Positions 7,730-36,568 of a stretch of DNA of 37,500 nucleotides are shown here, piece after piece. The notes under the pieces were generated by a model. The model worked only from the letters and a program-made list of their open reading frames with translations. It did no database searches and was not told the origin of the DNA. Origin of the DNA: Burkholderiaceae bacterium (GTDB lineage: Bacteria > Pseudomonadota > Gammaproteobacteria > Burkholderiales > Burkholderiaceae_C); assembly GCA_031398015.1 (NCBI GenBank), contig JANNMP010000158.1, forward strand, positions 1 through 37,500, given 5' to 3'. The position numbers and the translations under genes were made by a program. Numbering within the stretch: position 1 is the stretch's first letter; each line of letters begins with the position of its first letter.

Positions 7730-7743
7730 TTCCACAACGCCCT

Positions 7744-8781: not shown

Positions 8782-8814
8782 GCGCCCGGCACCATCCGCA
8801 CTGAGAACACGCCC

Positions 8815-11684: not shown

Positions 11685-11731
11685 ACCTGCGCCATGGACA
11701 ATTGCGCTCCGGCAAAAGGGCTTCGAACCAA

Positions 11732-14235: not shown

Positions 14236-14345
14236 CATGACACCCCAACACTTGCGTCGTTCGCTGCGTCCTGGCCCTGCAAGGGCCCCCTTCGTGGGCC
14301 TGGGAGCGGTCAGTCCCTTCGCAACGGCGGGGCGGTCCTGACATG
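14233..14345 (+). repeat. Small palindromic intergenic element (REP/MITE-like) flanked by TGACATG direct repeats; contains a 34-aa mini-ORF at 14237-14341
   Basis: TGACATG at 14233-14239 and 14339-14345; hairpins GGCCCT-gca-AGGGCC (14273-14287) and GGCCC-N7-GGGCC (14284-14300); ORF MTPQHLRRSLRPGPARAPFVGLGAVSPFATAGRS*. Confidence 0.55.
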
Positions 14346-16259: not shown

Positions 16260-16306
16260 GCCGGCCCCGGTGTGATGCCGATCATTGCCCTGCCGATGCG
16301 CCACCG

Positions 16307-17500
16307 ATGAGCCGCCATGTCAGAACCGTGCTGTTCTCGACGCTGTTCCCCAACGCGGCGCGGCCGATGCACGGCATCTTTGTCGAGACTCGGCTGCGTG
16401 AGTTGCTCAAGACCGGCCAGATCGAGACCCGCGTGGTCGCGCCCGTGCCCTGGTTTCCATTCACCGCCGAGCGCTGGGGCGACTACGCCCGCATGGCGCG
16501 TTGCCCCGCGCATGAGCTGCGCAACGGCATCGAGGTGGTGCACCCGCGCTACTTCTTGCCGCCCAAGGTTGGCATGACGCTGGCGCCGTTTCTGCTGGCC
16601 CTGGGTGCGGCACCGTCGCTGCGCCGCTTGCGGGCGTCCGGTTTTGATTTCGATGTCATCGACGCCCACTACTACTACCCTGACGGCGTGGCAGCGGCGA
16701 TCTTGGGTGCCTGCTTCAAAACGCCGGTGACCGTGACCGCGCGTGGCACCGACATCAACCTGATCCCCAGCTTTCACTGGCCGCGCAAGATGCTGCAATG
16801 GGCCGGCTCACGCGCCAGCGCCTCGATCGGCGTCTCGGCCGCGTTGGTCGAGCGCATGCGTGCATTGGCCTTTGACCCCGGCACCCTGCATGTCATGCGC
16901 AACGGCGTCGATCTGGACCGGTTCCAACCCAGTGAGCCGCAGGCCATGCGTCAGGCGCTGGGCATCCATGGTGCGCCGGTGCTGCTGGCAGTGGGCAACC
17001 TGCAGGTGCACAAGGGGCAACGGCTGCTGATCGACGCGCTGGCACAGGTGCGGCGCCAGCATCCCGGCGCCGTGGCGCTGATCGTCGGCGAAGGCCCGGA
17101 CGAAGGCTTCCTGCGTGCCCAGGCCAGTGCACTCGGCTTGCACGACGCGGTGCGCTTTGTCGGCATGGTGCCCAACCAGGATTTGCCGCAGTGGTACAGC
17201 GCGGCCGACATGCTGGTGCTGGCGTCCAGCCGCGAAGGCTGGCCCAACGTGCTGCTGGAGGCCATGGCCTGCGGCACCCCTGTGGTGGCCAGTGACGTGG
17301 GGGGTGTGCGCGAGATCGTGCAGACAGCGGTGGCCGGCCGGGTGGTGGCGCAGCCGAGCGCGACGACCCTGGCCGACGCCATCGACGGCGTGTTGCGTGC
17401 CGGCACCGACCGCGCCGCCGTGCGGGCCTATGCCCAGCAGTTCAGCTGGGAGCGCACCAGCCAGGACCAATTGGCGCTGTTCCAGACGCTGGCCGCCTGA
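16307..17500 (+). CDS. GT4 glycosyltransferase (TuaC-like)
   Basis: HGIFVETRL, DAHYYYPDG, TARGTDIN, SSREGWPNVLLEAMACGTPVV. Confidence 0.9.
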   Translation: MSRHVRTVLFSTLFPNAARPMHGIFVETRLRELLKTGQIETRVVAPVPWFPFTAERWGDYARMARCPAHELRNGIEVVHPRYFLPPKVGMTLAPFLLALGAAPSLRRLRASGFDFDVIDAHYYYPDGVAAAILGACFKTPVTVTARGTDINLIPSFHWPRKMLQWAGSRASASIGVSAALVERMRALAFDPGTLHVMRNGVDLDRFQPSEPQAMRQALGIHGAPVLLAVGNLQVHKGQRLLIDALAQVRRQHPGAVALIVGEGPDEGFLRAQASALGLHDAVRFVGMVPNQDLPQWYSAADMLVLASSREGWPNVLLEAMACGTPVVASDVGGVREIVQTAVAGRVVAQPSATTLADAIDGVLRAGTDRAAVRAYAQQFSWERTSQDQLALFQTLAA

Positions 17501-17508
17501 GGCCGACG

Positions 17509-18858
17509 ATGCGCGACATTCTGTTGACCGTCATCGTCCTGGTGCTGCTGGTGCGAACCTTGCGCCGGCCAGAGACCGGCGCCTACCTCTGGGCTTGGCT
17601 GTCGCTGATGAACCCGCACCGGATGTCGTATGGCTTTGCGTTGAGCGTGCCCTGGGCGTATGCCACGGCGGTGGTCACGCTCGCCAGCATGCTGTTCTCG
17701 AAGTCGCGCAAGCCACTGCCGTTGAATGGCGGCACCGTCGGCTTGCTGGTGCTGTGGGGCTGGATGACGCTGACCTCGGCCGTGTCGATCAACCCGACCG
17801 ACATGGTCTGGGAGCGCTGGACCTTCGTCTCGAAGATCTACGTCATGCTGCTGGCCACGCTGATGGTGATCCGTGGGCGCAAGCAGACCGACACCTTGGT
17901 GTGGGTGGTGGTGGCGTCGATCGCCTTCTTCGGCTTCAAGGGCGGCATCTTCACCATCGCCACTGGTGGCGCCTACCGGGTCTGGGGGCCACCGGGCAGC
18001 ATGGTCGAAGAGAACAATTCGCTGGCGGTTGCGCTGATCATCGTCCTGCCGCTGTTGTACTACCTGCGGCACGTCGCCACCAACCGGTGGCTGCGGCACT
18101 TCCTGGTGTTGACGATGGTGTTGGTCGGCGCTGCCATCCTGGGCTCGCAATCGCGCGGCGCCCTGGTCGGCTTGTTGGTGATGGTCTTTGTGTTGGGCAC
18201 CAAGACCAAGTACCCGGTGCGCTTCAGCATGGTGCTGCTGACCATTGTTGCCATCGGCATCGCCTTCATGCCCGACACCTGGTCGTCACGCATGGACACG
18301 ATCCAGAACTTTGGTGAAGACAGTTCAGCCATGTCACGCCTGTACACCTGGCACACGTTGTGGAACGTGGCTGTGGACCGCCCGCTGGTGGGCGCCGGGT
18401 TCCGCGCCGACACAACCGCGCTGTTTGCCCGCTATGCGCCGACCGGTCAGCAGTACGCGATTTTTCAAGGGGCGTCCTGGGTCGCCCACAGCATCTACTT
18501 CCAGGCGCTTGGCGAGCATGGATTCGTGGGCCTGTTGCTCTACCTCTTTCTATGGGTCTGGGTCTGGGTCACATCGTCGCGTTTGTCCAAGCAGGCTGAA
18601 AAGCTCTCCGAGGTCGATGCCTGGGTGCCGATGTTGCTGCGCATGTGCCAGGTGTCCACGGCTGGGTTCTGCGCCGGTGGCGCATTTTTGTCGCTGATGA
18701 ACTTTGACCTGCCGTTCTATATCCTGGCCTTTGTCACCCTGTGCCAGTGCGCGGTCAAGGATCGGCTGCTCCAAGCGCAGGCGCCGGCGCCCACGCCGGC
18801 TGCGCTGCGCGCAGCTGCCGGCGCGCGTCTGGCCTTGCAACACCATGAGCTACGCTGA
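17509..18858 (+). CDS. Putative O-glycosylation ligase / Wzy-like polymerase, exosortase A-associated (TIGR03097-like)
   Basis: MRD start, WLSLMNPHR, GPPGSMVEENNSLA, SQSRGA, AHSIYFQALGEHGFVG (Wzy_C signature); many TM helices. Confidence 0.9.
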   Translation: MRDILLTVIVLVLLVRTLRRPETGAYLWAWLSLMNPHRMSYGFALSVPWAYATAVVTLASMLFSKSRKPLPLNGGTVGLLVLWGWMTLTSAVSINPTDMVWERWTFVSKIYVMLLATLMVIRGRKQTDTLVWVVVASIAFFGFKGGIFTIATGGAYRVWGPPGSMVEENNSLAVALIIVLPLLYYLRHVATNRWLRHFLVLTMVLVGAAILGSQSRGALVGLLVMVFVLGTKTKYPVRFSMVLLTIVAIGIAFMPDTWSSRMDTIQNFGEDSSAMSRLYTWHTLWNVAVDRPLVGAGFRADTTALFARYAPTGQQYAIFQGASWVAHSIYFQALGEHGFVGLLLYLFLWVWVWVTSSRLSKQAEKLSEVDAWVPMLLRMCQVSTAGFCAGGAFLSLMNFDLPFYILAFVTLCQCAVKDRLLQAQAPAPTPAALRAAAGARLALQHHELR

Positions 18859-19849
18859 CATGGCCGCTGGTCTGGCGGCCAGCGTCGGCATGCGCGGGCT
18901 GTCTCTGGCCAGCGGGCAGCGGCTGTCGATCCTGATCTTCCATCGGGTCCTGGCGGCCCCTGACGCGCTGTTCCCCGCTGAAGTGGACGCAGCGCGCTTT
19001 GACCGCTTGATGGCATTGGTGGCACGCAGCTTCAACGTCTTGACGCTGGCCGATGCCGTGCGGCGTCTGGGCCAGGGCAACCTGCCACCCAGGGCCTTGT
19101 GCATCACCTTCGACGATGGCTATGCCGACAACCACGACATCGCCCTGCCGATCCTGCAACGCCACGGCCTGAGCGCCTGTTTCTTCATCGCCACCGGGTT
19201 CCTCGATGGTGGGCGCATGTTCAATGACTCGGTCATTGAGTGCGTGCGGCGCAGCAGCGCCAAGCGCATTGACCTGGCTGAATTTGGCCTGGGTGTGTTC
19301 GATCTGGGCACGCCCCAGCGCTGTGTGGCGGCGATCTCGACGTTGTTGCCCGTCATCAAGTACATGGGCCCGGCACAGCGCCAGGCTGCCTTGCAACGCT
19401 TGCAGCAGCACTGCCAACCCAGCCCCTTGCCAAACGACATGATGATGACGCGCGCCCAGGTGCGGGCCATGCATGCCGCTGGCATGGAGATCGGTGCCCA
19501 CACGGTGCAGCACCCGATCCTCAACCTGGTCGACGACGCCGAGGCTGAACGCGAGCTGGCCGACAGCCGCAGCCTGCTGCAGAACTTGATCGACCACCCG
19601 GTGGCGCTGTTTGCCTACCCGAACGGCCGGCCCGACAAAGACTATGGCCATCGGCACGCGGTGATTGCCGCGCGGCTTGGTTTTGCCGGCGCGGTGTCCA
19701 CCGCACCAGGTGTGGCAGCGCCAGGCAGTGATGTCTTTCAATTGCCGCGTTTCACGCCGTGGGACATGTCGCCAGTGCCCTGGCTTGCGCGGCTGGTTGC
19801 CAAGCGCCGAGGTGGCCCGTTCCAGATTGCCCGCCCTGCAACCGCCTGA
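18845..19849 (+). CDS. Polysaccharide deacetylase (NodB/CE4)
   Basis: ILIFHRV, ITFDDGYADN, EIGAHTVQHPIL, FAYPNG; start uncertain (18845/18860/18890). Confidence 0.9.
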   Translation: MSYADMAAGLAASVGMRGLSLASGQRLSILIFHRVLAAPDALFPAEVDAARFDRLMALVARSFNVLTLADAVRRLGQGNLPPRALCITFDDGYADNHDIALPILQRHGLSACFFIATGFLDGGRMFNDSVIECVRRSSAKRIDLAEFGLGVFDLGTPQRCVAAISTLLPVIKYMGPAQRQAALQRLQQHCQPSPLPNDMMMTRAQVRAMHAAGMEIGAHTVQHPILNLVDDAEAERELADSRSLLQNLIDHPVALFAYPNGRPDKDYGHRHAVIAARLGFAGAVSTAPGVAAPGSDVFQLPRFTPWDMSPVPWLARLVAKRRGGPFQIARPATA

Positions 19850-19900
19850 TGCCAGCGGCGGGCGGCCCGCATCCATGCCATCACGAGAGCTTTCACCACC

Positions 19901-20641
19901 ATGATTTCGCCGCTTGCCATCCGCCTGCGTGACCGCTACTACAACAACGCCTCGCACCCCTACCGGGTGTTCGAGCGGCATGTGCAGTCCCTGATCGGGC
20001 CACAGACCCAGGTGTTGCTGGACGCCGGTTGCGGCCGGACCATGCCGGTGCTGCAGAAGTTTCAAGGCAAGGTACCGAAGCTGATCGGTGTGGAGCTGGT
20101 TGATTTCACCGATGTGCCGGCCGGCATCGAGGCCCACAACGCCGACCTCGCCCGCCTGCCGGTGGCCGACAGCAGTGTCGACCTGGTGATGTCGCGCAGT
20201 GTGTTCGAGCACCTCACCGACCCCGCTGCGGTGTATGCCGAACTGGCCCGTGTGCTGCGGCCGGGTGGCAAAGTGGTGTTTCTCACCGCCAACTTCTGGG
20301 ACTACGGCACCCAGGTGGCGCGCCTGGTGCCCAACCGCTTCCATGCCAGGGTGGTGCGTGCTGTCGAGGGCCGCCCAGAGGAAGACACCTTCCCCACCGC
20401 CTACAAGACCAACACCCGGCGCGACATCGAGCGCCTGGCCCAGCATGCGCACCTGCAGGTGGCACGCATCGACTACCTGAGCCAGTACCCCAACTACCTG
20501 ATGTTCAGCGGCATCGCGTTTGCGGTCGGCATGGCCTTCGAGCGCCTGGTCAGCCGCTTCAACGCCTTGCGCGGCCTGAGGGGCTGGGTGATGGTCACGC
20601 TGGAAAAGCCCACCACACCCAGCACGGCCACAGCGCGCTAA
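19901..20641 (+). CDS. Class I SAM-dependent methyltransferase
   Basis: LLDAGCGR motif I, VDLVMSRSVFEHL, ARVLRPGG. Confidence 0.88.
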   Translation: MISPLAIRLRDRYYNNASHPYRVFERHVQSLIGPQTQVLLDAGCGRTMPVLQKFQGKVPKLIGVELVDFTDVPAGIEAHNADLARLPVADSSVDLVMSRSVFEHLTDPAAVYAELARVLRPGGKVVFLTANFWDYGTQVARLVPNRFHARVVRAVEGRPEEDTFPTAYKTNTRRDIERLAQHAHLQVARIDYLSQYPNYLMFSGIAFAVGMAFERLVSRFNALRGLRGWVMVTLEKPTTPSTATAR

Positions 20642-21582
20642 GCCAGGCCGGGCTTTCGCGCCACTACAACGCAGGAGACCGCCAGCTTGTGGCGGCGCGC
20701 GCGGTCCAGCGTGGTGCCCGACATCGGGAACGCCTGCAGGTCAATGACTTCGAAGCCCGATTGCCGCACCAGGTCAGCGGCGTGTTCCGGGCCGTTGAAC
20801 AGGAAGATGTGATCAGGCGCCGGGCTGTTGGCCGGCACATGCACATACAAGAGCCCGCCCGGGCGCAGCGCGTTGCCCGCGCTGCGCAACGCTGCCACCG
20901 GGTCTTCCAGGTGTTCGAGGATTTCGCTCATCACCAGGCTGTCAAAGCAGTCATCGGCGGCGGGCGGCGCGGCCAGAAACATGTCCTGCAACGACAGTGT
21001 CGCGCTCAGGCGGGCGCCAAGCCGCGCCAGGGCGTTGCGCGTTTTCTCGATGCTGGTCGGGCTGACATCCCAACCTGCAATGGCCCGCACATTCGGGCTT
21101 TGCGCGGCAAAGTACAGCAGCAGGCCATGCCCGGGGCCAATTTCCAAGTGCCGGCTGTTGGCCGGCAGTTGCGGCAGATACTGCGTCGCAAAGTGCGCGA
21201 AGGCATTGGCATGGTTGGCCCAGAACACGTTCGACAACAGCAGGCCGTTCATGTAGCGGGCCATGTAGCCAGCGTTTGCATAAATCTGTTCGTTGGCCTC
21301 TTTGAAGCTGGACAGTCGGTATTTTCCAGATCGCCGAAAGTGAATTTCCTCGGGCAGGACGATCTCTTCACACAAAAACCGGTAGTCGCTGACGAGTGTG
21401 TGCAGGCCGTCGGCCAGGTCGTCGGCAAGGGCCAGAATCGCTGCTGACAGCGTTTCGGAGACGTCCATGCTGCTTTGCGAGCGGCCGCTGAAGCTTGACG
21501 CCAGAAATTTCTCGTGGTCTGGCCAAGCCGCCAGTTGCTGCGCAACCAGTTTGGCCAGTGACGGGTGGTCGGTCGATATCAT
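20638..21582 (-). CDS. Class I SAM-dependent methyltransferase with N-terminal extension
   Basis: HLEIGPGHG, GWDVS, FDSLVMSEILEHLEDP, ALRPGG; start ATG 21582 or TTG 21588. Confidence 0.87.
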   Translation of the reverse strand: MISTDHPSLAKLVAQQLAAWPDHEKFLASSFSGRSQSSMDVSETLSAAILALADDLADGLHTLVSDYRFLCEEIVLPEEIHFRRSGKYRLSSFKEANEQIYANAGYMARYMNGLLLSNVFWANHANAFAHFATQYLPQLPANSRHLEIGPGHGLLLYFAAQSPNVRAIAGWDVSPTSIEKTRNALARLGARLSATLSLQDMFLAAPPAADDCFDSLVMSEILEHLEDPVAALRSAGNALRPGGLLYVHVPANSPAPDHIFLFNGPEHAADLVRQSGFEVIDLQAFPMSGTTLDRARRHKLAVSCVVVARKPGLA

Positions 21583-21584
21583 GT

Positions 21585-22088
21585 TCAAGGTCCAGGTGAT
21601 GAATCGGGCAGCACGGCAAGCCGATGGTCGCCAAAGGCATGGGCATGCCCAGGCGCCTCGATGAGCTCAATGATCGTGCTCAGCGGGCTGACAAAAAACT
21701 GAACCATGCCATTGCCAAAAGCGATGGCGGTTTGCGGTTTGCCGATCGGCGCGCAACCGGCAGCGCGCATGGCAGCAGTGCTGGCCGCCAGGTCGTGCAC
21801 GCGGTAGGCCACATGGTTGAGCAGGTTCTTGCGGGTTTTCATGGCGCCATACACCGGGCTCGTGGCATCGATCGGTTCAAGCAATTCGTAAACCATGCCA
21901 GCGGGGTCGCGGCCAAACAGAATGTGCACACCATTGACCGGGTCAGTGAAGCTTTGTGTCCAATCGTTGACGCCATGCACGGCAGCCAGCACCTGGCGCC
22001 CCTTGTGCAGGGATTTGACGACCAGGCCAAGGTGGTCAAACTGGGCCTGGGCGAGCGCGGCCAGTGGCATCACGGGGGTCATCGTCAT
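21585..22088 (-). CDS. VOC-fold protein (methylmalonyl-CoA epimerase/glyoxalase-like)
   Basis: FDHLGLVV, YELLEP, LNHVAYRV, IELIE: His/Glu/His/Glu metal-ligand pattern. Confidence 0.85.
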   Translation of the reverse strand: MTMTPVMPLAALAQAQFDHLGLVVKSLHKGRQVLAAVHGVNDWTQSFTDPVNGVHILFGRDPAGMVYELLEPIDATSPVYGAMKTRKNLLNHVAYRVHDLAASTAAMRAAGCAPIGKPQTAIAFGNGMVQFFVSPLSTIIELIEAPGHAHAFGDHRLAVLPDSSPGP

Positions 22089-22121
22089 TGGGCCTTGGTT
22101 GCCAGGTTGCTGGGCGCCAAT

Positions 22122-23447
22122 TCAATGCAGCCGGGCGTTGCCAGGGCAGGCCTGCACGGCGCAGCGGTAGCGCTGGGCATCGGCCAGCGCCTGCGGGTTG
22201 GCGCTGCGCCAGCGCTCACGCGCCTGGCGCACCTGAAAAACCCGCTGTGCCACTGTCTCCGGGCGCAGTTCTGCGCCCAGCGCGGATTCCGATGCCGATG
22301 CCGATGACGCTGTTGGCGCGGCGGGCGCGCCGATCCACGCTGCGGTGATGCGCTGGCCGAGGATGGCGTTGTAGTGCACCGGGTCCCAGAAAGCGGCCAT
22401 TGCTGCGCGCCTGTCACCACGCGCCGGCACCGGCTGCAGGTAATCGGCTTCATAACCGCCAAAGTCCCAGACGGTCACATCCATGCCACGCTGCCGGGCG
22501 TGGTGCGCAGCATCGGCCAAGGCATGTTTCCAACGGTCGAAGTCAGGCCAGTGGCCAAGCGCGTCAATGAGTTCGTGGTGAGAGACATGGGACGGTTGCA
22601 CCGCCATTTTCACCGCCATCTTGTGCTGCGCCGCCAACCCCAGCATTGCCGACACCGCAGCCATGCCGCGGATCGCCCCGTCGGGCGCCACGCCCAACTG
22701 GTGTGGTTTTGCAAAGCGCCGCGCGGTCAGCAGGTGCTTTTGATGGAACAGCGCGCCGGCACCATCGGCCTGTGTCCAGGCCTGCAATTGCCATTCAGAC
22801 GAGTTTCCACCAGGCAGCAGATTGGGCCCCGCAGCACGTTGGCTGGCGCGCAGCGTGGCCAAACTGTCGACCAGTGCTGACACGGTCAGCAACGACGTGG
22901 CCGCATCACGCCACAGCAGGCCTGGCTGCAACAAGCCGCCCGATGTGCGCCGCGCCAGCGCCTGCAACCGCTCGGCTTGCTGCTGATCAGCGTCGTTGGC
23001 AACGGGCTGGGGTGCCGTTGCAGGGCGCACCTGTGACAGAAACGATTCAAAGTCCAGCCCGACCACCAGGGTTGTTGGCAGCCTGTCCGGCTGGCAATGT
23101 GCCAGCAGCATGTTGAGCAACGGCAGGGCATCATGCAGATTGGTGCCGGCAACGCTCAGGTTGTAGACCGGCTGCATCGCTTGCGGCCAGGCAGGCCCGC
23201 TCGGGTCAAGCCCGATGCCCGAACGCGAGCTGCCGATGATCAGCGTCTTGCCGCAGGCACGGCTGGCCTGGTAGGCCTTCATCATCGGCTCGTGGGTGGT
23301 GACAGCTGGCTTGATGTGGTTGAAGCCGGCAAAACGCGCCTGACCGAACACCAGATACGGGTCCACCACCCAGCACAGCGCCGCCGCCAGTGCGGCCAGG
23401 CCCAGTGCCACACCGAATATCCAGCTCAAGAAGCGGCGCTCGGACAT
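22122..23447 (-). CDS. Membrane-anchored SGNH-like periplasmic protein (AlgJ/DltD-like acyltransferase candidate)
   Basis: N-terminal TM followed by VDPY, block I IIGSSRS, block V FWDPVHY (DxxH); directly downstream of an MBOAT. Confidence 0.7.
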   Translation of the reverse strand: MSERRFLSWIFGVALGLAALAAALCWVVDPYLVFGQARFAGFNHIKPAVTTHEPMMKAYQASRACGKTLIIGSSRSGIGLDPSGPAWPQAMQPVYNLSVAGTNLHDALPLLNMLLAHCQPDRLPTTLVVGLDFESFLSQVRPATAPQPVANDADQQQAERLQALARRTSGGLLQPGLLWRDAATSLLTVSALVDSLATLRASQRAAGPNLLPGGNSSEWQLQAWTQADGAGALFHQKHLLTARRFAKPHQLGVAPDGAIRGMAAVSAMLGLAAQHKMAVKMAVQPSHVSHHELIDALGHWPDFDRWKHALADAAHHARQRGMDVTVWDFGGYEADYLQPVPARGDRRAAMAAFWDPVHYNAILGQRITAAWIGAPAAPTASSASASESALGAELRPETVAQRVFQVRQARERWRSANPQALADAQRYRCAVQACPGNARLH

Positions 23448-23450
23448 GGC

Positions 23451-25067
23451 TCAGAACTGCCAATAAAGAAATTCACTGACCTGGTTCAGGCTCATCACGC
23501 CGGCCAGCAAGGTGACGCCGAACACTGTTGCCCAGCGGGCGTTCAAGGACACCGACCAAGGCCCGACAGGTGATGCCTTCTTGCCCAGCGCCGGGTTGAA
23601 CCTGGCCATCAGCTCCAGGGAATTGGGCAAGGTGGTTGCTGCAACCAGCAGCACAACGGCCCAGAGGACCAAGCTGACAAACCCCGTGCCTGAATAGAAA
23701 TCGCCCGAGACACCGGCCGCCTGCAGCCAGGCGCCGGGCGCGCCCAGGCGGCCCAGCACGGCCTGCGGCAGCACGGCGCCGTCCAGCCCCAGCATGGCGC
23801 GCATCATGTGCAGCGCACCGGCGACAGTCTGGCTCTTGAACAACGCCATCGCAAACACCACACAGGCCAGCGTCAGCACAAAGCCAATCGGCCGCATCAC
23901 ACGCTGGTAGCGCTGGCGGTTCCAGCGCGGCCGCCATTGCCGCCAAGCATGGTTGACCACCAGCAAACTGCCATGCAACAGGCCATACAGCACGAACGTC
24001 ATGCCAGCGCCGTGCCACAGGCCCGACAGGAACATGGTGATCAGCGTCGGTGTCGCCACCAGCACAAAAAACGCAGCCGGTCTGGAGCCAGCCGCTGCCA
24101 CCATTGATTTGCCCTGGGCCATGCGTTTGCGTGTCAGATGCAGCGCGATGGGCGCGTAGATGTACGCTGTCAGAAAGCGCGTCAAGGTCATGTGCCATCG
24201 GTTCCAGAAATCGATGATGCTGGTGGCCTTGAGCGGCGAGTCGAAGTTCACCGGCAAGCGAATGCCAAACATGCGGGCCAGCCCGATGGCCATGTCGGAG
24301 TAGCCTGAAAAATCAAAATAAACCTGCAGCGTGAAAGCCAGTGCGCCAAGCCAGGCGTAGAACAACCCAAGTGGCTCACCACGGTCACTCATGGCAAACA
24401 AGCTGCTGGCGTGTGGCGCAATGCCGTCGGCCAGCACAGCCTTTTTGAACAAGCCCATGGCAAACAGGCACAAGCCGATGCACAGATTGTGCAGCTCGAT
24501 TTGCGGTGTGGCCTTTTGAAACTGCGGCACCATCTCGCGGTAGTGCACGATCGGCCCGGCAATCAACTGCGGGAAGAAGGCCACAAAGATCAGAAAGTCG
24601 ACCAGTTCAAACTGCTTGACGTTGCCGACACGCACATCAACCAAGAACGCAATCTTCTGGAAGGTGATGAACGAAATGCCCAGCGGCAGCAAAATCTCCA
24701 ACAGCGGCCATTGCGTCAGAAATACCTGGTTGATGCTGTCGACAAAGAAATTGCGGTATTTGAAGTAACCCAGAAAACAAAGGTTGAAAACGATGCCGGC
24801 AAGCAGCATGGCCGACGCGGTGCGGTCAGGTTGCTTGTGGTTTGCAACGCGGTGCTGCAGGGCACGGGCCAAGAAGTAGTTGACGACCAGCGACGGCGCG
24901 ATGATCAACAGGTTGATCGGGTTCCAGATGGTGTAGAAGACCGCTGAGCAAGCCACCAGCCACCACAGTGGCCAGCGTGCTGTGCCGGCCCGCGCGGCCA
25001 GCAGCGCATAACCCAACAGCACGATTGGCAAGAAGCCGAAGACAAATGCGTAGGAGTTGAACAGCAT
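23451..25067 (-). CDS. MBOAT family O-acyltransferase (AlgI/DltB-like)
   Basis: MLFNS start, LPLGISFITFQ, FFPQLIAGPI, YFDFSGYSDMAIG, FWNRWHMTL, GLWHGA (catalytic His), FLYWQF end. Confidence 0.95.
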   Translation of the reverse strand: MLFNSYAFVFGFLPIVLLGYALLAARAGTARWPLWWLVACSAVFYTIWNPINLLIIAPSLVVNYFLARALQHRVANHKQPDRTASAMLLAGIVFNLCFLGYFKYRNFFVDSINQVFLTQWPLLEILLPLGISFITFQKIAFLVDVRVGNVKQFELVDFLIFVAFFPQLIAGPIVHYREMVPQFQKATPQIELHNLCIGLCLFAMGLFKKAVLADGIAPHASSLFAMSDRGEPLGLFYAWLGALAFTLQVYFDFSGYSDMAIGLARMFGIRLPVNFDSPLKATSIIDFWNRWHMTLTRFLTAYIYAPIALHLTRKRMAQGKSMVAAAGSRPAAFFVLVATPTLITMFLSGLWHGAGMTFVLYGLLHGSLLVVNHAWRQWRPRWNRQRYQRVMRPIGFVLTLACVVFAMALFKSQTVAGALHMMRAMLGLDGAVLPQAVLGRLGAPGAWLQAAGVSGDFYSGTGFVSLVLWAVVLLVAATTLPNSLELMARFNPALGKKASPVGPWSVSLNARWATVFGVTLLAGVMSLNQVSEFLYWQF

Positions 25068-25073
25068 GGCTGT

Positions 25074-27020
25074 TCAAGCGCCGGCCTGGGGCCTGGCCTG
25101 GGCCGCGTCAGCAATTGGTTCAGGCACGGCGCTGGCGGCAATTTGCTGCACCTGGATGTGGCAGTCGCGCGGCGTGAAATTGGCAATGTCCAGCGACCAA
25201 GCCGACGCCTCGCCGTCAGCGCCGGGTTGGCCATTCAGACTGCTGAACCCCAGGGCGGCATAGTGGTCTTGCACCAGGGCATTTTTGGCTGTTGGCAAGA
25301 ACCAGCCGACGATGCGCGTGGCGCCGCGCGCTTGCGCCAACGCCACCAAGACATTGAGCACAGCACGTTCAACCCCACGGTTGAGCACCCGGCAACTCAT
25401 CAGCCAAGTGTCAATCAATACCTCGGCACCGGCTTGTGTGGCAACCACCACGCTGATCATGCCGTTGTCGCCAAAGCGGTCGGTCAGCCGCACTTGCAGC
25501 GTGATGGCCATGGGGTCGTGCTCCAGCGCCTCAACCTCGGCCATGGTGCGCCGGCGGGTGGTGAGGTTGAACTGGTTGGTCTTGTTGATGAGCTGTGTGA
25601 TGCGCGCGCGCCCGACAGCGTCAAACGCCGAGAACTCGGCAACCATGTCGAGCGAGGCCAGATGGCCGTGCAAATCACTGCCGACCACCAGCGCGGCCTC
25701 GCGTGCAGCGTTTTGCTGGTACTGGCCCGCACGCAAGCGGTCATCGTCGGTGAACAACACCGACTCGAAGTAACCCGCCGCCAGCAGCAGCGCCGGATAG
25801 TGCTCGGCAGCGCTGGGCAACTCGGGCACGCCGACTTCGGGCAATGCCTGGCGCACCTGGTGCCGCTCGGTCGGGTTGTCATCGAGCAAGACCAGCGAAT
25901 CAACGCCGATGTTCAAGGCGCCGGCGATGGCCCGCAGGTTGGCGGCCTTGTCCTGCCAGTTGGCGTGGAACGCGGCAATGTGGTGCTCACGCAGCAGCAT
26001 GTCGGGGTGTTCGCGAAACGCTTGTCTGGCCAGTGCATCGTTGTTCTTGGACGAGACCGCCAAGATCACGCCGCGATCACGCAGCGCCAGCGCGCAGGCC
26101 TGCACGGCCAAGAACGCTTCACCCTGGCCGCTGCCTTGGCCCAGCACGATGCCGCCCAGGCCATCGTCGCCAATCACCCCTCCCCACAGCGTGTTGTCGA
26201 GGTCCAGCACCAGGCACTTGCGCGCCAGCCCGCAGCTGGCCATCAGCAAGCGGCAAACATGGTCGGCATACAGAGGCAGCACCTGCGGCGCCATCGCAAT
26301 CTTGCCCACATGCCACAGCCCCGGATGGTGCCAGCGCGTGGCGCCCACTTGCGCCGCGATGCTGGCCACGTCCAGCAGCAGCACGCCAGGCGGCAAACGT
26401 GCGCAGAGCTGCTGGTTGAATTGCTGCAGCAACCAGCGCAAGCTGCCGGGAACCAGCGCGTCCAAGCTGCCAAACAGCGCACCGGTCGGCTCTGCCAAGG
26501 TTTGCACCAGCACCTGGCAGCCGGCGTGTTCAAGCAGCGCTGCCGCTGCCCCCAGCAATTGGTCCACCGCCGCCCTCACGCGCTGCTCGGCCAGCGCCTG
26601 GTTGCCTGGGCAAGGGCTCATGTCAAAGCCGCGCCAATCGACTGCCAGCAGCACGAACTGCGGGCGGGCTGCCGCCGTGCTGGATGCCGGGTCCAGGGCC
26701 TCTTGCATCCAGCTGCCAAATGCCCCGGCCGAAACGTTCAACAGCAGGCCGTGGCGGGGTGCGGTGGCGGCGATGGCCGTGGCGCTGAAGTCCTGGGTGG
26801 CATTGGACAGCAGCCGCAAGTGCAGCACGGTGTCGCCGCTGGTGTTTGCCGCGTGCGCACACGCGCGCGCCAGCACGCTCAGCTGCGATGCATCGAGCCG
26901 GTGCGTGGCCAGCCGCCTGAGAGCCTGGGTATCGGCCGCCGCCGATTGCCGAAACAGCCGCACATCGTCACGAAAGCCGGGCGGCGGCGCTGGCAACCAG
27001 GGCAGTTCAAGCAAGTCCAT
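25074..27020 (-). CDS. FkbH-like HAD-IIIC glyceryl transferase/phosphatase with C-terminal GNAT-like domain
   Basis: KCLVLDLDNTLWGG, SSKNN, LDDNPTER, KTNQFNLT, DRFGDNG, MSCRVL (Cys acceptor). Confidence 0.92.
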   Translation of the reverse strand: MDLLELPWLPAPPPGFRDDVRLFRQSAAADTQALRRLATHRLDASQLSVLARACAHAANTSGDTVLHLRLLSNATQDFSATAIAATAPRHGLLLNVSAGAFGSWMQEALDPASSTAAARPQFVLLAVDWRGFDMSPCPGNQALAEQRVRAAVDQLLGAAAALLEHAGCQVLVQTLAEPTGALFGSLDALVPGSLRWLLQQFNQQLCARLPPGVLLLDVASIAAQVGATRWHHPGLWHVGKIAMAPQVLPLYADHVCRLLMASCGLARKCLVLDLDNTLWGGVIGDDGLGGIVLGQGSGQGEAFLAVQACALALRDRGVILAVSSKNNDALARQAFREHPDMLLREHHIAAFHANWQDKAANLRAIAGALNIGVDSLVLLDDNPTERHQVRQALPEVGVPELPSAAEHYPALLLAAGYFESVLFTDDDRLRAGQYQQNAAREAALVVGSDLHGHLASLDMVAEFSAFDAVGRARITQLINKTNQFNLTTRRRTMAEVEALEHDPMAITLQVRLTDRFGDNGMISVVVATQAGAEVLIDTWLMSCRVLNRGVERAVLNVLVALAQARGATRIVGWFLPTAKNALVQDHYAALGFSSLNGQPGADGEASAWSLDIANFTPRDCHIQVQQIAASAVPEPIADAAQARPQAGA

Positions 27021-27070
27021 AGGTGCACATCAGAGGATGGAGGTGGCCAGGCGAGACAGTCGTCGGCCAA

Positions 27071-27103
27071 GCCTGTGCCTGGGCCTGTGCCTGAGCCTGT
27101 GCC
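27071..27103. repeat. Three GCCTGTGCC copies with 12-bp period in the ACP-FkbH spacer
   Basis: Copies at 27071, 27083 and 27095; adjacent palindrome GCCCGT-ca-ACGGGC at 27101-27114. Confidence 0.7.
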
Positions 27104-27167
27104 CGTCAACGGGCCGGCCAGCCGAGGGGCCAGCGGCAGTCGATGGCAGTGGCTGGTCCAGGCGCGG

Positions 27168-27407
27168 CTACAGCATGCCGGCGACCATGTCGAGCAGTTC
27201 GCCGACGTTCTCGACCGACGTGATCTGGTGCGCGCTGAAGGTCACGCCGAAGGCCTGCTCCAGGGCAATCATGATGCGCACATTGGCCAGGCTGTCCCAA
27301 CCCTCCACATCAGCGGCCGTGGTGGCAGGCGTGAGCTGCAAGCTGTCCAGGTCGAGCTGGTCCTGGATGACCTCCGTCAGCTTCGCCAATATCTGTTCGC
27401 GCGACAT
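27168..27407 (-). CDS. Acyl carrier protein
   Basis: 79 aa, acidic, DVEGWDSLANV phosphopantetheine Ser motif; GGAG/AGGTG upstream. Confidence 0.92.
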   Translation of the reverse strand: MSREQILAKLTEVIQDQLDLDSLQLTPATTAADVEGWDSLANVRIMIALEQAFGVTFSAHQITSVENVGELLDMVAGML

Positions 27408-27561
27408 GCTCACCTGTTGCTCCCATGCAAGTTTTGTTCAGGCGGCATCTTAATTTCAGTTTGCCTGGCACTGCCGCAGCATCCCCCACGGCCTTGACAC
27501 TCAGACCAGGGGGGGCAGGGGGCCGGCGATACGGCGCCACCCGGCCTGCCAAGGCCGCCAG

Positions 27562-29283
27562 TCAGCGCTGCAGTTTCCAGTCTGGTGCATGCGCGCGCAG
27601 CCAGTGCTCCAGCATGATCAGGATCCATGCCATGGTGCCGTAGTAGTGCGGGTGCTGCGGCAGCAACTCGCCCAGCAATTGCTTGATGAATGCCGGCTGC
27701 ACCAGGCCACGCTCGACGGTGGCTGCCAAGGCATCGGCGGCCAGCTTCTTCAGCCCGTCATGGCGCACCATCCACACGCCGAACGGCAAGCCAAACCCCT
27801 GTTTCTGCTTGCTGATCACGCCGTCGGGCAAGAAGCCACGCAGTGCTTCCTTGAAGAACCAGCGCAGTGCATCACCACGCAGTTTGTGGTCGGGCGGCAG
27901 GCGCATCGAGAACGCCAGCAAGGCGTCATCGAGCATCGGGAAGCCCACCGACACGCCCGCCAGTGCGGTGGTGCCAACCACCTTGGGCAAGTCGCACTCG
28001 GCCAGCGTGTAGCGCCAGTCATAAGCCAGGTGGCGGTCGATCTCGTGCGCGGCATCGGCCTCGGCCCACACCTGGCGCTGCTGCAGGTTGACGCTGGCCA
28101 CATCCACCTGTGCCAACAGGGCCGGCGTCAGCACATTGGCATAACCGAGGCGGCGCACCAGGTTGTAGTCCTGGCCGCGGTCGGGCAGCGGCGTGTTGGC
28201 CAGGCGGATGTAGTTCGAGCCCTTCTTCAGCCCGGGGGTGCGTGCCACCACGTCCAGGCCGAAGAACGGCTCCAGCAGGCCCTTGCGCAAGAGCTGCGGC
28301 ACACGTTGGTAGTGGTCGAAGATGCGCCCACCGGCGTAGCGCGAGTTGCCGCCGAACAGCTCGTCGCCGCCGTCGCCAGCCAGCAGCCGTGTCACGCCGT
28401 CGGCACGCGCCTTGGCAGCGCAGTGGTACGACGGCAACGCCGATGAATTGCCGAACGGCTGGTCGTAGGCAGCGGCCACCTGGGGGATGTCGCGCACCAG
28501 GTCATCGGGGGTCACATACAGCTCACGGTGCTCACAGCCGAAATGGCGGGCCGCCATCCGCGCGAACGCCATCTCGTCGTAGCCCTCGGCCTCGAAGCCG
28601 ATCGAGTAGGTGACGGCAGGCTTGCCTGCAGCCAGGCCGATCATGCCGGCCACGGTGGAGCTGTCGGTGCCACCGCTGAGAAAACACGCGGCCGTGCTGC
28701 CGTCCAGTTGCTGCGCCACCGCGCTTTGCAGCAGCGTGCGGAACTCATCGCGCAGCGTCTCGAACGGCGCCACCGGCGCGGGGTTGAAGCGTGGCACCCA
28801 GTAGGGCTGCACGCGCAACTGGCCGGCATGAAACAGCGCAAACTGTCCCGGCGGCAGCCGGTGCACGCCCTGGAACACGGTGCGTGGCGACGGGATCACA
28901 TGGAAGTACAGGTAATCGAACAGCGCTTGTGGGTCGAGATCGGCACCCGCTGACGCCAACGTGTCTGCACGGGCCGCGCAGCGCAGCTGCCCAGCATCGA
29001 TGCGGTAACACAGCGAGCGCACCGCGAAGCGGTCGATCGCCATGAACACGCTGCCATCGTCCAGCGTGAGTGCCACCGCAAAGTCACCCTGCACCAGGCC
29101 CGCCGCGGCTTGTGGGCCATGGCGCCGGATGAGGCGCAGCCAGGCCTGCGCGTGGCCGTCCTGCAGGTCAAAACCGTCAGGAAAGCGGGGCGAGCCAATG
29201 CACAGCGCGGCAGGGTTGCTGGTCATGGCGTTGGCTGCAGGTGGGCGGTTGGTGGCCAAGGGCTTGTCGTGGTCAATGTGCAT
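27562..29283 (-). CDS. Asparagine-synthetase-like ATP-dependent amide ligase lacking the N-terminal catalytic Cys
   Basis: GDFAVAL..IDRFAVRSL (degenerate Ntn domain), FLSGGTDSS PP-loop, LAGDGGDELFGG, KQGFGLP; no MCG start at either candidate ATG (29283 or 29226). Confidence 0.85.
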   Translation of the reverse strand: MHIDHDKPLATNRPPAANAMTSNPAALCIGSPRFPDGFDLQDGHAQAWLRLIRRHGPQAAAGLVQGDFAVALTLDDGSVFMAIDRFAVRSLCYRIDAGQLRCAARADTLASAGADLDPQALFDYLYFHVIPSPRTVFQGVHRLPPGQFALFHAGQLRVQPYWVPRFNPAPVAPFETLRDEFRTLLQSAVAQQLDGSTAACFLSGGTDSSTVAGMIGLAAGKPAVTYSIGFEAEGYDEMAFARMAARHFGCEHRELYVTPDDLVRDIPQVAAAYDQPFGNSSALPSYHCAAKARADGVTRLLAGDGGDELFGGNSRYAGGRIFDHYQRVPQLLRKGLLEPFFGLDVVARTPGLKKGSNYIRLANTPLPDRGQDYNLVRRLGYANVLTPALLAQVDVASVNLQQRQVWAEADAAHEIDRHLAYDWRYTLAECDLPKVVGTTALAGVSVGFPMLDDALLAFSMRLPPDHKLRGDALRWFFKEALRGFLPDGVISKQKQGFGLPFGVWMVRHDGLKKLAADALAATVERGLVQPAFIKQLLGELLPQHPHYYGTMAWILIMLEHWLRAHAPDWKLQR

Positions 29284-30445
29284 GGGCGCGCCGGGCCAGC
29301 AATTCGTCGGCTGCAGCCAAAGCGCGGCGCGCATTGCTGGCCCAGTGGTAGCCGCGCGCTTGCAGCGCCTGGCCTGCCGCAGCACCCAGGCGCTGGCGCA
29401 GGGCGCCGTCGGCCAGCAGCCGGTCGAGTTGGGTTTCGATGCCATTGGCATCGGCGGGGTCGTACATCAGGCAGTCCTGGCCCTCGACCAGCACCTCATG
29501 GTGGTTGGGCTGGTCGGGCGCAAGGATGGCCTTGCCCATCGCCATGTACTCAAACAGGCACAACGGTGATGCATAGGGCACCAGCGCGGTCTGCAGGGCG
29601 ACATCGAATGCCATCGCAGCGGCCGGCACGGCCGAGCGCGGCACCACGCCGGTGAACACGACCTTGTGTGCAATGCCCAGCGTTGCGGCTTGCGATTGCA
29701 GCGCGGCGCGCACCGGGCCGTCACCCACCACCATCAGGCTGGCGCTGTCGTCGGCCGGGCGCCTGGCGATCCAGGCCACGATGCGGTCGAGCTGATCCCA
29801 TTCACGCACAAAGCCGATGAAGCCGATCACCGTGCGGCCCGCCAGGCCGTGGCAGGCCTTGGCTGCGTCGGCACTGGGCAGGCTGGCGAAGTCCTTCGGG
29901 TTGATGCCATTGGGAATGATGCGCAGCCGGTCGGCCTGCACACCCATGCCGACCAGCATGTCACCCAGCACCTGGGTGACCGGAAACACCCGGTCGGCGC
30001 CACGCAAGGTGTAGCGCTCGAAGCGGTCGGCCAGCCAGCCCAGCTTGAGCTGGTCATATTTTCGGCGTTGCAACGCATCGGGCGCATTGACCTCCAGCAT
30101 CAGCGGTGTGTTGGTGCGCCTGCAGGCCCACACACCCGCCGGCTGGTACAGGGCATAACGTTCATAGACCACGTCGGGCTTGAAGCTGCGCATGGCCAAC
30201 ATCAGCCGGCGGTAGGCCACCAGCGAATAGCTGGCCTCGGCCAGCTCATACAGCGCACCGGGCAGGTAACGCTTGAGCCGGCCCACCCAACCCGGGCTGC
30301 CGCCCTGGCCGGAATCTGACTGGTGCACAGCGGGCCCGACAACCTCGACCTGGTGGCCCTGGGCCTGCAGGGCATGCACCATTTCTTCGATGTGCGTGAA
30401 CTGGCCGTCCTTGGACGCAACGCGGTGGTGGTACAGGATGCGCAT
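29273..30445 (-). CDS. GT4 glycosyltransferase
   Basis: MRILYHHR..SKDGQFTHI, VYERY, IPNGI, ASPLCLFEYMAMGK; alternative start 30523 (ATGA overlap) adds a Pro-rich leader. Confidence 0.9.
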   Translation of the reverse strand: MRILYHHRVASKDGQFTHIEEMVHALQAQGHQVEVVGPAVHQSDSGQGGSPGWVGRLKRYLPGALYELAEASYSLVAYRRLMLAMRSFKPDVVYERYALYQPAGVWACRRTNTPLMLEVNAPDALQRRKYDQLKLGWLADRFERYTLRGADRVFPVTQVLGDMLVGMGVQADRLRIIPNGINPKDFASLPSADAAKACHGLAGRTVIGFIGFVREWDQLDRIVAWIARRPADDSASLMVVGDGPVRAALQSQAATLGIAHKVVFTGVVPRSAVPAAAMAFDVALQTALVPYASPLCLFEYMAMGKAILAPDQPNHHEVLVEGQDCLMYDPADANGIETQLDRLLADGALRQRLGAAAGQALQARGYHWASNARRALAAADELLARRAHAH

Positions 30446-30519
30446 GGGATGCAGGGCTGCGGGGTTGGGTGCGGGGTTGGGTGGACGGTGCGGTGGTTCT
30501 TGGCGACGATCGATCGGGC

Positions 30520-31971
30520 TCATCTGGCCGCCAGGCGCCTGATGGCTGGGCCTGCTGCATGCACCACCTCATGCCACAAGGGGTGCCGCATGAATCGCAG
30601 AGACACTGTCCAGCAGAGCAAGGTGAGGCCAGCGCTGAGCAGAATGTGGCGGACGTAATTGTCCTCAGTCGCCGGCAAAGCCACAAAGAGCAGCGCCGCC
30701 GGCAGCAGTGACACCGCCGTCACCTGGAGACTTTTTTGGCACGCTGACCAGAGTTGTCTGCCAGTGAAGCCACAACCCCGGGCCAGATGCCATTGCGACA
30801 GGCCCAGGCCCAGCACAGCCGACGCCAGCAGGCCCCAGCAGGCACCGATCAGGCCGAACGGCAGCACCGCCGCCAGGCCTGCGATCTGGGTGATCTGCAG
30901 CAGCAGCTGCAAGCGTGTGGCCAGCTTGACCAGCCCATGCGACAGCAGTGCCTCCTTGGCCAGGTAGTGCACCATTTCCACCGCGCCGGCAATGCACAGC
31001 ACATGGGCCAGTGGCACCGACGCCAACCACTGGTCGCCGTACATGATGCGGATGGCTGGAAACGCCTCCAGCGCCAGGAAGCCAAGAAACGTCCAACCGA
31101 TGCCGGTGAAGATGGCAATGCTGCGGATGTAGGCGCGGTTCACGCTCTGCTCTTCGCGCACCGATTTGGCAAAGTACGGCAGGCACACCGGCATCACCGC
31201 CTTCAAGACCAGTTGCCTGAACAGCTGCACCAGGCCACCGGCGCGGCTGAAGACGGCCACGTCGGCCATGCCCTGCGCGCGCCCGATGACCAGCTCGGGC
31301 GCACCGCGCCCCAGCTGCGCCAAGACATAGATGCCACTGGCAAAACTGCCGAAGTGCAGCACCTCACGCACACCCTTCAGGCCGGGCCAGCGCGGAAAGT
31401 GAGCCGGCCGGTAGAGCATGGACACCAGCACCGTGACGGCCACACCGGCCAGTGACGACCAGGCCAGGCTCATCGGGCCGAAGCCACGCAAGGCCAGGCT
31501 GATGGCCAGCACCAGTGAGACCGTTTCGGACAACATGCCGCCCACCAGCAGCGGCTTGAAGTTCATCTCACGGCGGAACCAGGCCTGGTTGATGGCGCCA
31601 AACGGGATCAGCAGAAAGTTGAACGCCTGCACCCGCATGACATCGGCCATCACCTCCGAGCGGTAGAAATCGGCGGCCGGGCCGGCGCCCAGAAACATGG
31701 CCAGGCCCATGGCCCATGACATGCCGATGTTGACGGCGAACGCGGCCCGGATGTTGTCGCGGCTGAGCTGCTTGGCCTGGATCAGGTACTCGGCGATGCC
31801 GAAGTCGCGGAAGTTGGTGGCCAGCGCGGCAAACACCGTGGCCACCGCAAACACACCCACATCGGTGGGTGTGAGGATGCGCGACAAGACCACGGTCGAC
31901 ACCAGCTGCAGCGCCACCCCAAAGTAGCTCTGCGCCGCCGCATAAACCAGCGAGCGGCGGACTTCAGCCAT
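30520..31971 (-). CDS. wzx: Wzx-type flippase (PST/MOP family)
   Basis: VLSRILTPTDVGVFA, FRDFGI, RREMNFK, GDQW..SVP; about 12 hydrophobic segments; start MAEVRRS at 31971. Confidence 0.88.
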   Translation of the reverse strand: MAEVRRSLVYAAAQSYFGVALQLVSTVVLSRILTPTDVGVFAVATVFAALATNFRDFGIAEYLIQAKQLSRDNIRAAFAVNIGMSWAMGLAMFLGAGPAADFYRSEVMADVMRVQAFNFLLIPFGAINQAWFRREMNFKPLLVGGMLSETVSLVLAISLALRGFGPMSLAWSSLAGVAVTVLVSMLYRPAHFPRWPGLKGVREVLHFGSFASGIYVLAQLGRGAPELVIGRAQGMADVAVFSRAGGLVQLFRQLVLKAVMPVCLPYFAKSVREEQSVNRAYIRSIAIFTGIGWTFLGFLALEAFPAIRIMYGDQWLASVPLAHVLCIAGAVEMVHYLAKEALLSHGLVKLATRLQLLLQITQIAGLAAVLPFGLIGACWGLLASAVLGLGLSQWHLARGCGFTGRQLWSACQKSLQVTAVSLLPAALLFVALPATEDNYVRHILLSAGLTLLCWTVSLRFMRHPLWHEVVHAAGPAIRRLAAR

Positions 31972-33813: not shown

Positions 33814-33849
33814 GGCGGTGTCTCGGGCTGTGTGTTCAGGTCTGGATGT

Positions 33850-34794: not shown

Positions 34795-34799
34795 GTCGC

Positions 34800-35720: not shown

Positions 35721-35740
35721 GGTGCGGGGTGCTTGGCGGC

Positions 35741-36505: not shown

Positions 36506-36568
36506 GTTGAAACCTGATTCATCTGTTCTTCGGTGCGGGCTGTCGGCTGCGGCCAACGCCCCAGCGCA

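Follow-up and report, generated by a model that had tools for sequence, protein, structure and literature searches.

The present analysis concerns a 37,500-nucleotide stretch of DNA (the window) from contig JANNMP010000158.1 of a Burkholderiaceae bacterium (assembly GCA_031398015.1) and, within it, a cassette of six adjoining genes on the minus strand (20638-27413). The genes encode an acyl carrier protein (ACP), a long FkbH-type protein, a membrane-bound O-acyltransferase (MBOAT), a 441-aa SGNH-type protein, a VOC protein and a methyltransferase. An XrtA/PEP-CTERM exopolysaccharide (EPS) locus surrounds them, and they end its minus-strand arm. How a surface polymer gels, how its charge is shielded and how phages or enzymes recognise it depend on its acyl groups. 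The cassette comprises, in order:

27168..27413, minus strand: ACP, 81 aa, phosphopantetheine site Ser41 (PF00550, 35.8 bits)
25074..27020, minus strand: long FkbH-type protein, 648 aa, with FkbH_N, HAD-IIIC and C-terminal Cys domains (TIGR01686, PF21211)
23451..25067, minus strand: MBOAT, 538 aa, His352, fused FXYXXF motif with Tyr535 (PF03062)
22122..23447, minus strand: predicted membrane-anchored DltD-like SGNH protein, 441 aa, Ser73/Asp355/His358 (fold matches, no family match)
21585..22088, minus strand: VOC-fold metalloenzyme, 167 aa, four metal ligands (PF13669)
20638..21588, minus strand: class I S-adenosylmethionine-dependent methyltransferase, 316 aa, whose helical N-terminal domain is specific to the family (family and fold matches)

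From the ACP to the methyltransferase gene the intergenic gaps are 147, 6, 3, 33 and -4 nt, the catalytic motifs are intact in all six proteins, and every gene is single-copy in the assembly. An original prediction, made from the letters of the window, had described six co-oriented adjoining genes with intact motifs inside an EPS locus, which open reading frames (ORFs), family matches and residues confirm. It had also described a window free of ketosynthase, adenylation enzyme and FkbI/FkbK-type dehydrogenase. This was borne out in our family scan, which covered 31 ORFs (the likely genes among 194 listed) and found none of the three. A polyketide synthase (PKS) extender-unit cassette of the FkbGHIJK type, making methoxymalonyl-ACP, was rejected because no FkbI, FkbK or PKS is among the scanned ORFs. 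The G+C-rich spacer of 147 nt between the ACP and FkbH genes (27021-27167) contains short GGCACAGG-like repeats; no promoter or terminator was called there, and the promoter/terminator scan gave nothing above shuffled sequences.

Proteins of the cassette

The ACP has a DSL motif at residues 40-42 with Ser41 as the phosphopantetheine site, and a phosphopantetheinyl transferase is encoded in the genome. Models of DltC are not among its five best NCBIfam matches. The FkbH-type protein scores well above the cut-off of TIGR01686 (277.9 versus 146.65 bits), also matches PF21211 and is homologous to BF1531 (PDB 3slr, E 2.5e-53), a long-form relative that is labelled uncharacterized; among the matches listed, its closest relatives are from Betaproteobacteria. 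It carries the motifs DLDNT (Asp273) and SCRV (Cys543), presumably the HAD aspartate motif and the functional cysteine of the C-terminal domain. Enzymes of the FkbH/OzmB type load D-glyceryl from 1,3-bisphosphoglycerate onto an ACP, and by analogy the cassette protein is a predicted glyceryl-ACP loader.

The MBOAT aligns with DltB (E 5e-34), but its TIGR04091 score of 202.9 bits lies below the cut-off of 375. It ends in FLYWQF (533-538), and His352 and Tyr535 are invariant in a 29-sequence alignment. The FXYXXF tail occurs in 36 of 41 MBOATs of at least 380 aa from FkbH-containing loci, the five misses being one frameshifted copy, three proteins that lack the tail and one ending in FIYMGY. In PatA and DltX the tyrosine of this motif is described as carrying the acyl group covalently, from where it passes on to the SGNH serine (PMC12148441). 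Residues 302-315 of the cassette MBOAT make up an unbroken basic helix that aligns to helix HC of DltB, in which Met302 to Lys312 and Arg317 are reported to bind the carrier DltC (PMC11035591). The cassette protein lacks a YxxLGG loop; the unbroken helix stands at the carrier-docking site of DltB.

This signature was compared with gene context in a sample that was blind to neighbours. From 200 genomes searched by MBOAT homology alone, 60 matches were taken with about 5 kb on each side, namely the 40 that rank highest once the window's own protein is set aside and 20 from lower in the list. The YxxLGG loop is present in 49 of them, with an ACP gene near none and an FkbH gene near one (L213), while the 11 loop-less proteins have an ACP nearby in seven cases and FkbH in six (loop versus ACP neighbour, Fisher p 9e-7, with kin not independent). 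Within 3 kb of FkbH, each of the 42 MBOAT ORFs that could be read lacks the loop. These come from 46 MBOAT ORFs, four fragments having been set aside, of which one is the first part of a loop-type gene lying some 3 kb off. On a quick tree calculated for 77 MBOATs from an alignment without the helix/loop stretch, the label has to change seven times, three of these changes being forced by well-supported branches. Gene context and the loop-less helix together point to acyl-ACP as the donor of the cassette MBOAT; loop-type MBOATs would use acyl-CoA.

For the 441-aa protein no sequence match was found in Pfam, NCBIfam or PDB. It begins with a hydrophobic helix and carries the motifs GSS (Ser73) and DPVH (Asp355, His358); across 24 aligned sequences Ser73 is invariant and Asp355 and His358 are kept in at least 90%. 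Its structural model (pLDDT 87.8) has DltD at Foldseek ranks 1 to 7 (E 0.009-0.09), and VIA-align gives Z scores of 10-11 to DltD, PatB and GDSL esterases (6pfx: Z 11.1, rmsd 4.8, 250 aligned). The model has an SGNH fold, and the protein is a predicted periplasmic transferase.

The VOC protein has the metal ligands His19, Glu68, His92 and Glu141, and the four ligands of methylmalonyl-CoA epimerase are kept in all 20 FkbH-linked VOCs. This H/E/H/E set is common to methylmalonyl-CoA epimerase and glyoxalase I and hence not diagnostic, and epimerisation of a 2-hydroxy thioester via an enediolate would fit the chemistry of both. A housekeeping methylmalonyl-CoA epimerase was rejected by the TIGR03081 score (33 bits versus a cut-off of 115) and by a separate clade. 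In a VOC tree of 43 rows, from which nine duplicate loci were left out, 18 of the 20 FkbH-linked VOCs form a supported group together with one locus that a contig end truncates, apart from 22 other proteins, of which the four tested are true methylmalonyl-CoA epimerases. All eight FkbH-linked VOCs tested fall below the TIGR03081 cut-off, and the four from the other clade pass it. It seems plausible from these sequence features that the VOC protein is a C2 epimerase of glyceryl-S-ACP.

The methyltransferase carries the motif EIGPGHG, and a fold search returned only generic small-molecule methyltransferases. Its Atlas look-alike cluster is mostly from Campylobacterota.

Gene neighbourhoods

Neighbours within 7 kb were scored in an FkbH-seeded set, the best 80 among the 585 stretches of genome contigs that were confirmed; many of these loci are broken by contig ends. 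ACP adjoins FkbH in 75 of these 80 loci and an MBOAT is present in 39. The SGNH type of the cassette occurs in seven, always in an ACP-FkbH-MBOAT-SGNH core, and three other SGNH-like clusters occur in 10, 9 and 4. VOC and the cassette's methyltransferase family are each found in 10, MaoC in 13 and WcbI-like genes in 16; MBOAT and WcbI-like genes are nearly exclusive (together in 2 of 39 MBOAT loci). All six genes in the same order were seen in one further locus (L001), and L063 holds five of the six with an unclassified ORF after the MBOAT. Since the six-gene order recurs in L001 and the four-gene core in seven loci, the cassette is more than a chance assembly. In the genus of the window FkbH was found in 6 of 36 genomes, and none of the seven loci fetched from them has an MBOAT. 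The co-occurrence search proposed with the original prediction thus recovers the four-gene core and, once, the whole order, but not a fixed six-gene unit, which was rejected because VOC and the methyltransferase are each present in so few FkbH loci. On these neighbour counts, FkbH and ACP are the constant core, and tailoring and transfer genes both vary.

Seeding the search with the methyltransferase family gave the complementary view. In the phylum of the window 7 of 400 genomes match, and their loci contain FkbH in all seven, ACP in five, VOC in four and MBOAT in one; both plasmids that matched carry FkbH and ACP. In a second phylum the family is found in 3 of 301 genomes, with ACP in all three, FkbH in one and LuxE/LuxC in the other two. 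Altogether, ACP or FkbH is linked to the methyltransferase in 12 of 12 seeded genome and plasmid loci. Among 150 representatives of the family there are three fusions, one each to FkbH, to ACP and to a PDH-E1beta-like subunit. VOC is accompanied by this methyltransferase in 6 of 10 VOC loci. In the two LuxE/LuxC loci (L159:8802-12541, L160:8975-13577) the methyltransferase family and ACP stand with homologues of both proteins, and in L159 the module adjoins AAC(3)-like and DUF4910/DUF2172 genes, which suggests that LuxE/LuxC are another loader for the same acyl platform. Because each is present in 10 of the 80 FkbH loci and MBOAT in one of the seven methyltransferase-seeded genome loci, VOC and methyltransferase are optional add-ons on the ACP side, travelling with FkbH and ACP rather than with the MBOAT. 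The methyltransferase also occurs with MaoC, the lactyl route, in 4 of 20 loci. MaoC and PDH-E1beta links would point to lactyl and glycolyl groups, which have a 2-hydroxyl only, and for this reason O-2 appears the likeliest site of methylation. VOC and MaoC were never found together in 16 VOC loci (99 loci, 24 with MaoC; p 0.01).

Several related modules were noticed in passing. In the XrtA loci L115, L116 and L120 (genus of the window), L029, L043 and L048, ACP-FkbH-MaoC(/SDR) goes together with an unnamed family (U2, about 290 aa) in place of MBOAT, SGNH, VOC and methyltransferase; the module is likely to be a variant for lactyl that uses another transferase. Another unnamed family (U1, about 290-440 aa) accompanies FkbH-ACP-methyltransferase/VOC in L012, L020, L022, L030, L032, L097 and L111. 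It has no Pfam match in the members scanned, an MBOAT stands alongside in none of the seven loci, and U1 is a candidate new acyltransferase. In L012 and L032 two sulfotransferases flank the FkbH-ACP-methyltransferase-VOC genes, recalling the 2-O-methyl-3-O-sulfo-glycerate of suomilides. A TylF-type O-methyltransferase adjoins ACP-FkbH in L011 (8729-9589) and L030 (11970-12839), where the methyltransferase family of the cassette was not found. On pSymB of Sinorhizobium meliloti (L153:5903-11791, L152) the order VOC-MBOAT-unknown gene-ACP-FkbH lies directly upstream of capsule export genes. The FkbH is found in 40 Sinorhizobium records, its alignment splitting in two pieces in strain 1021. A 409-aa gene there is annotated as 'TonB-dependent receptor' and has no Pfam match, and a profile comparison with the neighbour of the S. 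meliloti MBOAT was not significant (probability 5.6). S. meliloti is a genetically tractable host for such a module. Cultured non-pathogens that carry relatives are Roseateles aquae APW11, Massilia sp. 9I, Stutzerimonas, Rubrimonas cliftonensis and S. meliloti 2011.

Surrounding locus and related systems

The remainder of the EPS locus lies on both sides of the cassette:

645..20641, plus strand: the plus-strand arm, of XrtA/PEP-CTERM type (scores above cut-off with NCBIfam models of the XrtA system)
27562..37495, minus strand: upstream genes of the arm that ends in the cassette (family matches)

The plus-strand arm contains genes for export, chain length, a kinase, deacetylases, exosortase A, glycosyltransferases and an amidotransferase, and an O-antigen-ligase-like gene. 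Upstream of the cassette the minus-strand arm encodes an amidotransferase-like protein, a GT4 glycosyltransferase, a flippase, a GT2 glycosyltransferase, an FkbM methyltransferase, XrtA hydrolases 1 and 2 and a tyrosine phosphatase, with a weak sulfotransferase match at 35741-36556. In total the window has two methyltransferases besides that of the cassette. An accessory insert would fit the G+C content at third codon positions (GC3), which is 0.71-0.81 in five of the six cassette genes and 0.86-0.88 in four core genes of the EPS locus. Two oddities of the plus-strand arm should be mentioned. In the XrtA-system amidotransferase gene (TIGR03108, 14343-16259) the frame is open except for an in-frame TGA at 14673-14675, which may reflect a true nonsense change or a fault of the assembly, and a 304-aa ORF ahead of exosortase A (9176-10090) has no Pfam or NCBIfam match.

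By motif and fold, the cassette belongs with the MBOAT-SGNH systems that use a tyrosine shuttle. With the Dlt system, which D-alanylates lipoteichoic acid, it shares a dedicated carrier, an MBOAT with catalytic histidine and docking helix, the FXYXXF shuttle and a membrane-anchored SGNH protein of DltD fold. However, Dlt is loaded by the adenylating DltA, whereas the cassette has FkbH and no AMP-binding match is among the scanned ORFs; the Dlt shuttle sits on the separate DltX, whereas here it is fused to the MBOAT's C-terminal end. VOC and methyltransferase go beyond the Dlt set, the locus is a Gram-negative EPS locus and the MBOAT stays below the DltB cut-off. The cassette would work like Dlt but is not Dlt, there being no DltA, no DltX and, by cut-off, no DltB. 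PatA-PatB and AlgI-AlgJ share the MBOAT with fused C-terminal FXYXXF motif and the SGNH partner. In contrast to them, the cassette co-encodes an ACP and a loader, and its MBOAT lacks the YxxLGG loop. PatA is reported to use acetyl-CoA, and MBOAT/SGNH pathways other than Dlt are described as lacking a carrier protein in the available text of a 2025 paper (PMC12148441); elsewhere ACP is named, in the portion available, only as a possible acetyl donor (PMC8892547).

For the loading and tailoring half, FkbH/OzmB and the suomilide loading module (OMT-FkbH-PCP-sulfotransferase) share the proposed order in which glyceryl derived from 1,3-bisphosphoglycerate is placed on a carrier and then O-methylated. 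However, these loaders feed polyketide synthases and non-ribosomal peptide synthetases, while the cassette has no ketosynthase or condensation domain and no FkbI/FkbK that would oxidise the group towards methoxymalonyl. The 2-O-methylglyceric acid of suomilide has been proposed to originate from FkbH and O-methyltransferase domains (PMC13122637). The locus cj1295-cj1302 of Campylobacter jejuni NCTC 11168, compared by annotation only, has an fkbH-domain gene beside an 'epimerase' in a glycan locus for methylated glycerate, and is a closer precedent for tailoring than the examples chosen in the original prediction. We take cj1299, next to cj1301/cj1302, to be an ACP gene and cj1300 a methyltransferase gene. 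Flagellin of C. jejuni 11168 is reported to carry di-O-methylglyceroyl pseudaminic acid in a Cj1295-dependent manner (PMC3068675; bioRxiv 10.64898/2025.12.14.694251). Of two strains described as devoid of dimethylglyceric acid on flagellin, one lacks cj1302 (fkbH-domain) and the other the cj1301 'epimerase' (PMC7099621). The Campylobacter acyl group differs in that it ends on a flagellin sugar and needs Cj1295; the available portions of these sources report no MBOAT-SGNH pair, and its own route is likewise putative. A glycerate acyl group on an EPS is also known from gellan of Sphingomonas elodea, in which the glyceryl ester is L-configured. A review lists glycerate among the acyl groups of gellan and, in its available part, gives no gene (PMC10970089); a search of CC-licensed PMC and bioRxiv, a scope outside which subscription journals lie, found none for this ester.

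Proposed relay and alternative explanations

Taken together, gene order, motifs and folds are in line with a carrier-fed relay. That FkbH loads an ACP from which MBOAT and SGNH protein would transfer the group to a glycan is, as a core, quite likely. The fuller reading, in which an O-methylglyceryl ester would be placed onto a cell-surface glycan, most likely the EPS of the surrounding XrtA/PEP-CTERM locus, we favour by a modest degree of confidence. FkbH would very likely take 1,3-bisphosphoglycerate, strip the phosphate (Asp273) and pass D-glyceryl via Cys543 to Ser41 of the holo-ACP, as its analogues do. The VOC protein might then remove the C2 proton of the thioester and return it on the other face to give L-glyceryl-ACP, a step for which our confidence is evenly poised. 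The methyltransferase probably acts on the ACP-bound acid, most likely at O-2. By analogy to DltB/DltX and PatA, we expect with high confidence that the ACP would dock on the cytoplasmic helix of the MBOAT and that His352 would transfer the acyl group to the shuttle Tyr535. The DltD-like protein would take it over on Ser73 and esterify the glycan in the periplasm, the EPS being a reasonably probable acceptor.

Much of this had been anticipated in the original prediction. Its core, with FkbH in place of DltA, has gained from co-occurrence, the tyrosine shuttle motif, the docking-helix signature and the modelled DltD-like fold. The SGNH label holds at the level of this fold but finds no sequence-family match. 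Conversion of D- to L-glyceryl-S-ACP by the VOC protein remains plausible with the metal ligands kept, although the protein misses the methylmalonyl-CoA epimerase cut-off. O-methylation of the glyceryl group, which had been worded as 'may', appears better founded than stated, given FkbH near the methyltransferase in all seven genome loci of the window's phylum and the fusion records.

Several points weigh against the fuller reading. Its basis is gene order, motifs, folds and co-occurrence; it is from these that we deduce epimerisation, the position of the methyl group and the acceptor. The complete six-gene order is rare, four of the 11 loop-less MBOATs have no ACP nearby, the LGG-type MBOAT of L213 has FkbH adjoining, and the Foldseek E-values to DltD are weak. 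The VOC protein has its best PDB matches in 2qh0 and 3hdp (presumably from C. acetobutylicum), labelled lactoylglutathione lyase and glyoxalase I, and its mutual exclusion with MaoC does not reach significance when the 80 FkbH-seeded loci are taken by themselves (p 0.20). The LuxE/LuxC loci indicate that the substrate of the methyltransferase is not always glyceryl, and the looked-up fusions are single records, possibly assembly artefacts. In L002 (Roseateles), the closest four-gene relative examined, no EPS genes are among the 11 neighbouring ORFs scanned, and so the acceptor need not be an adjacent EPS. The in-frame stop in the amidotransferase gene may mean that the EPS of the locus is altered. 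Finally, the two C. jejuni strains differ in many other genes, and the authors, in the text available, draw no link (PMC7099621).

The same relay might export another acyl group. The VOC protein would then be a glyoxalase-I-type isomerase or eliminase and the ACP would carry lactyl (then 2-methoxypropionyl) or pyruvoyl, or the VOC protein would repair an ACP blocked by methylglyoxal, with the D-product. The glyoxalase labels of the best PDB matches and the shared metal ligands are in line with this, and the mutual absence of VOC and MaoC/SDR would fit two routes to one product. However, the cassette lacks a reductase, the VOC protein obtains a score with the epimerase model and no match to the glyoxalase I model is listed for it, and the fkbH/'epimerase' locus of Campylobacter is associated, in the accounts available, with a glyceroyl product, so that we consider this explanation unlikely. 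Similarly low is the probability that the proposed acyl group is destined for a PEP-CTERM protein glycan, a lipopolysaccharide O-antigen or a lipid-linked intermediate encoded elsewhere. L002 bears the four-gene core outside an EPS context, the GC3 of five cassette genes is that of an insert, and genes for exosortase A and an O-antigen-ligase-like protein belong to the locus; the cassette nevertheless continues the minus-strand EPS arm, and in seven loci (L026, L029, L043, L048, L115, L116, L120) an FkbH module adjoins a gene closely homologous to the amidotransferase or hydrolase of the XrtA locus.

Very improbable, in our view, is an export of plain glyceryl with the methyltransferase acting on a sugar of the glycan. 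The generic fold matches would allow it, EPS loci commonly include sugar methyltransferases and two more methyltransferases are present in the window, but linkage to ACP or FkbH persists in all seeded loci across differing glycan contexts, and the fusions add to this. If anything, it is slightly more improbable still that MBOAT and SGNH protein are an ordinary acetyl-CoA O-acetyltransferase while ACP, FkbH, VOC and methyltransferase feed another, cytoplasmic transferase. The non-Dlt MBOAT/SGNH pairs described in the available text of PMC12148441 do use acyl-CoA, FkbH-ACP is often found with WcbI-like (16/80) or AAC(3)-like partners instead of an MBOAT, and XrtA hydrolases 1 and 2 are close by. 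Set against this are the spacing of the genes by 3-6 nt, the near exclusion of MBOAT and WcbI and the loop-less helix of the cassette MBOAT, which tracks ACP neighbours.

More broadly, and tentatively, with somewhat less than balanced confidence in the whole, FkbH and ACP may constitute a general platform for C3 hydroxy-acyl groups (D- or L-glyceryl, lactyl and their 2-O-methyl ethers). It would have swappable tailoring enzymes (VOC epimerase, MaoC/SDR, the methyltransferase family of the cassette) and transferases (MBOAT-SGNH, WcbI-like, AAC(3)-like and unnamed families). As part of the same reading, loop-less MBOATs would be a second widespread carrier-fed class, readable from loss of the YxxLGG loop and arisen more than once. 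If so, the missing routes to the glyceroyl groups of gellan and Campylobacter flagellin would be supplied.

No description of the six-gene module was found in CC-licensed PMC and bioRxiv, subscription journals lying outside that search, and the only carrier-fed route to surface polymers reported so far is that of D-alanine to the Gram-positive cell wall. If the relay is true, this would be a second carrier-fed MBOAT/SGNH class, widespread in Pseudomonadota and Acidobacteriota, and the exported group would be a tailored acid derived from glycolysis, not acetate or alanine. The cassette offers named genes and mass shifts by which the arrival of glyceroyl or methylglyceroyl groups on bacterial glycans can be tested, and presence or absence of the loop provides a simple sequence rule for guessing the donor type of an MBOAT.

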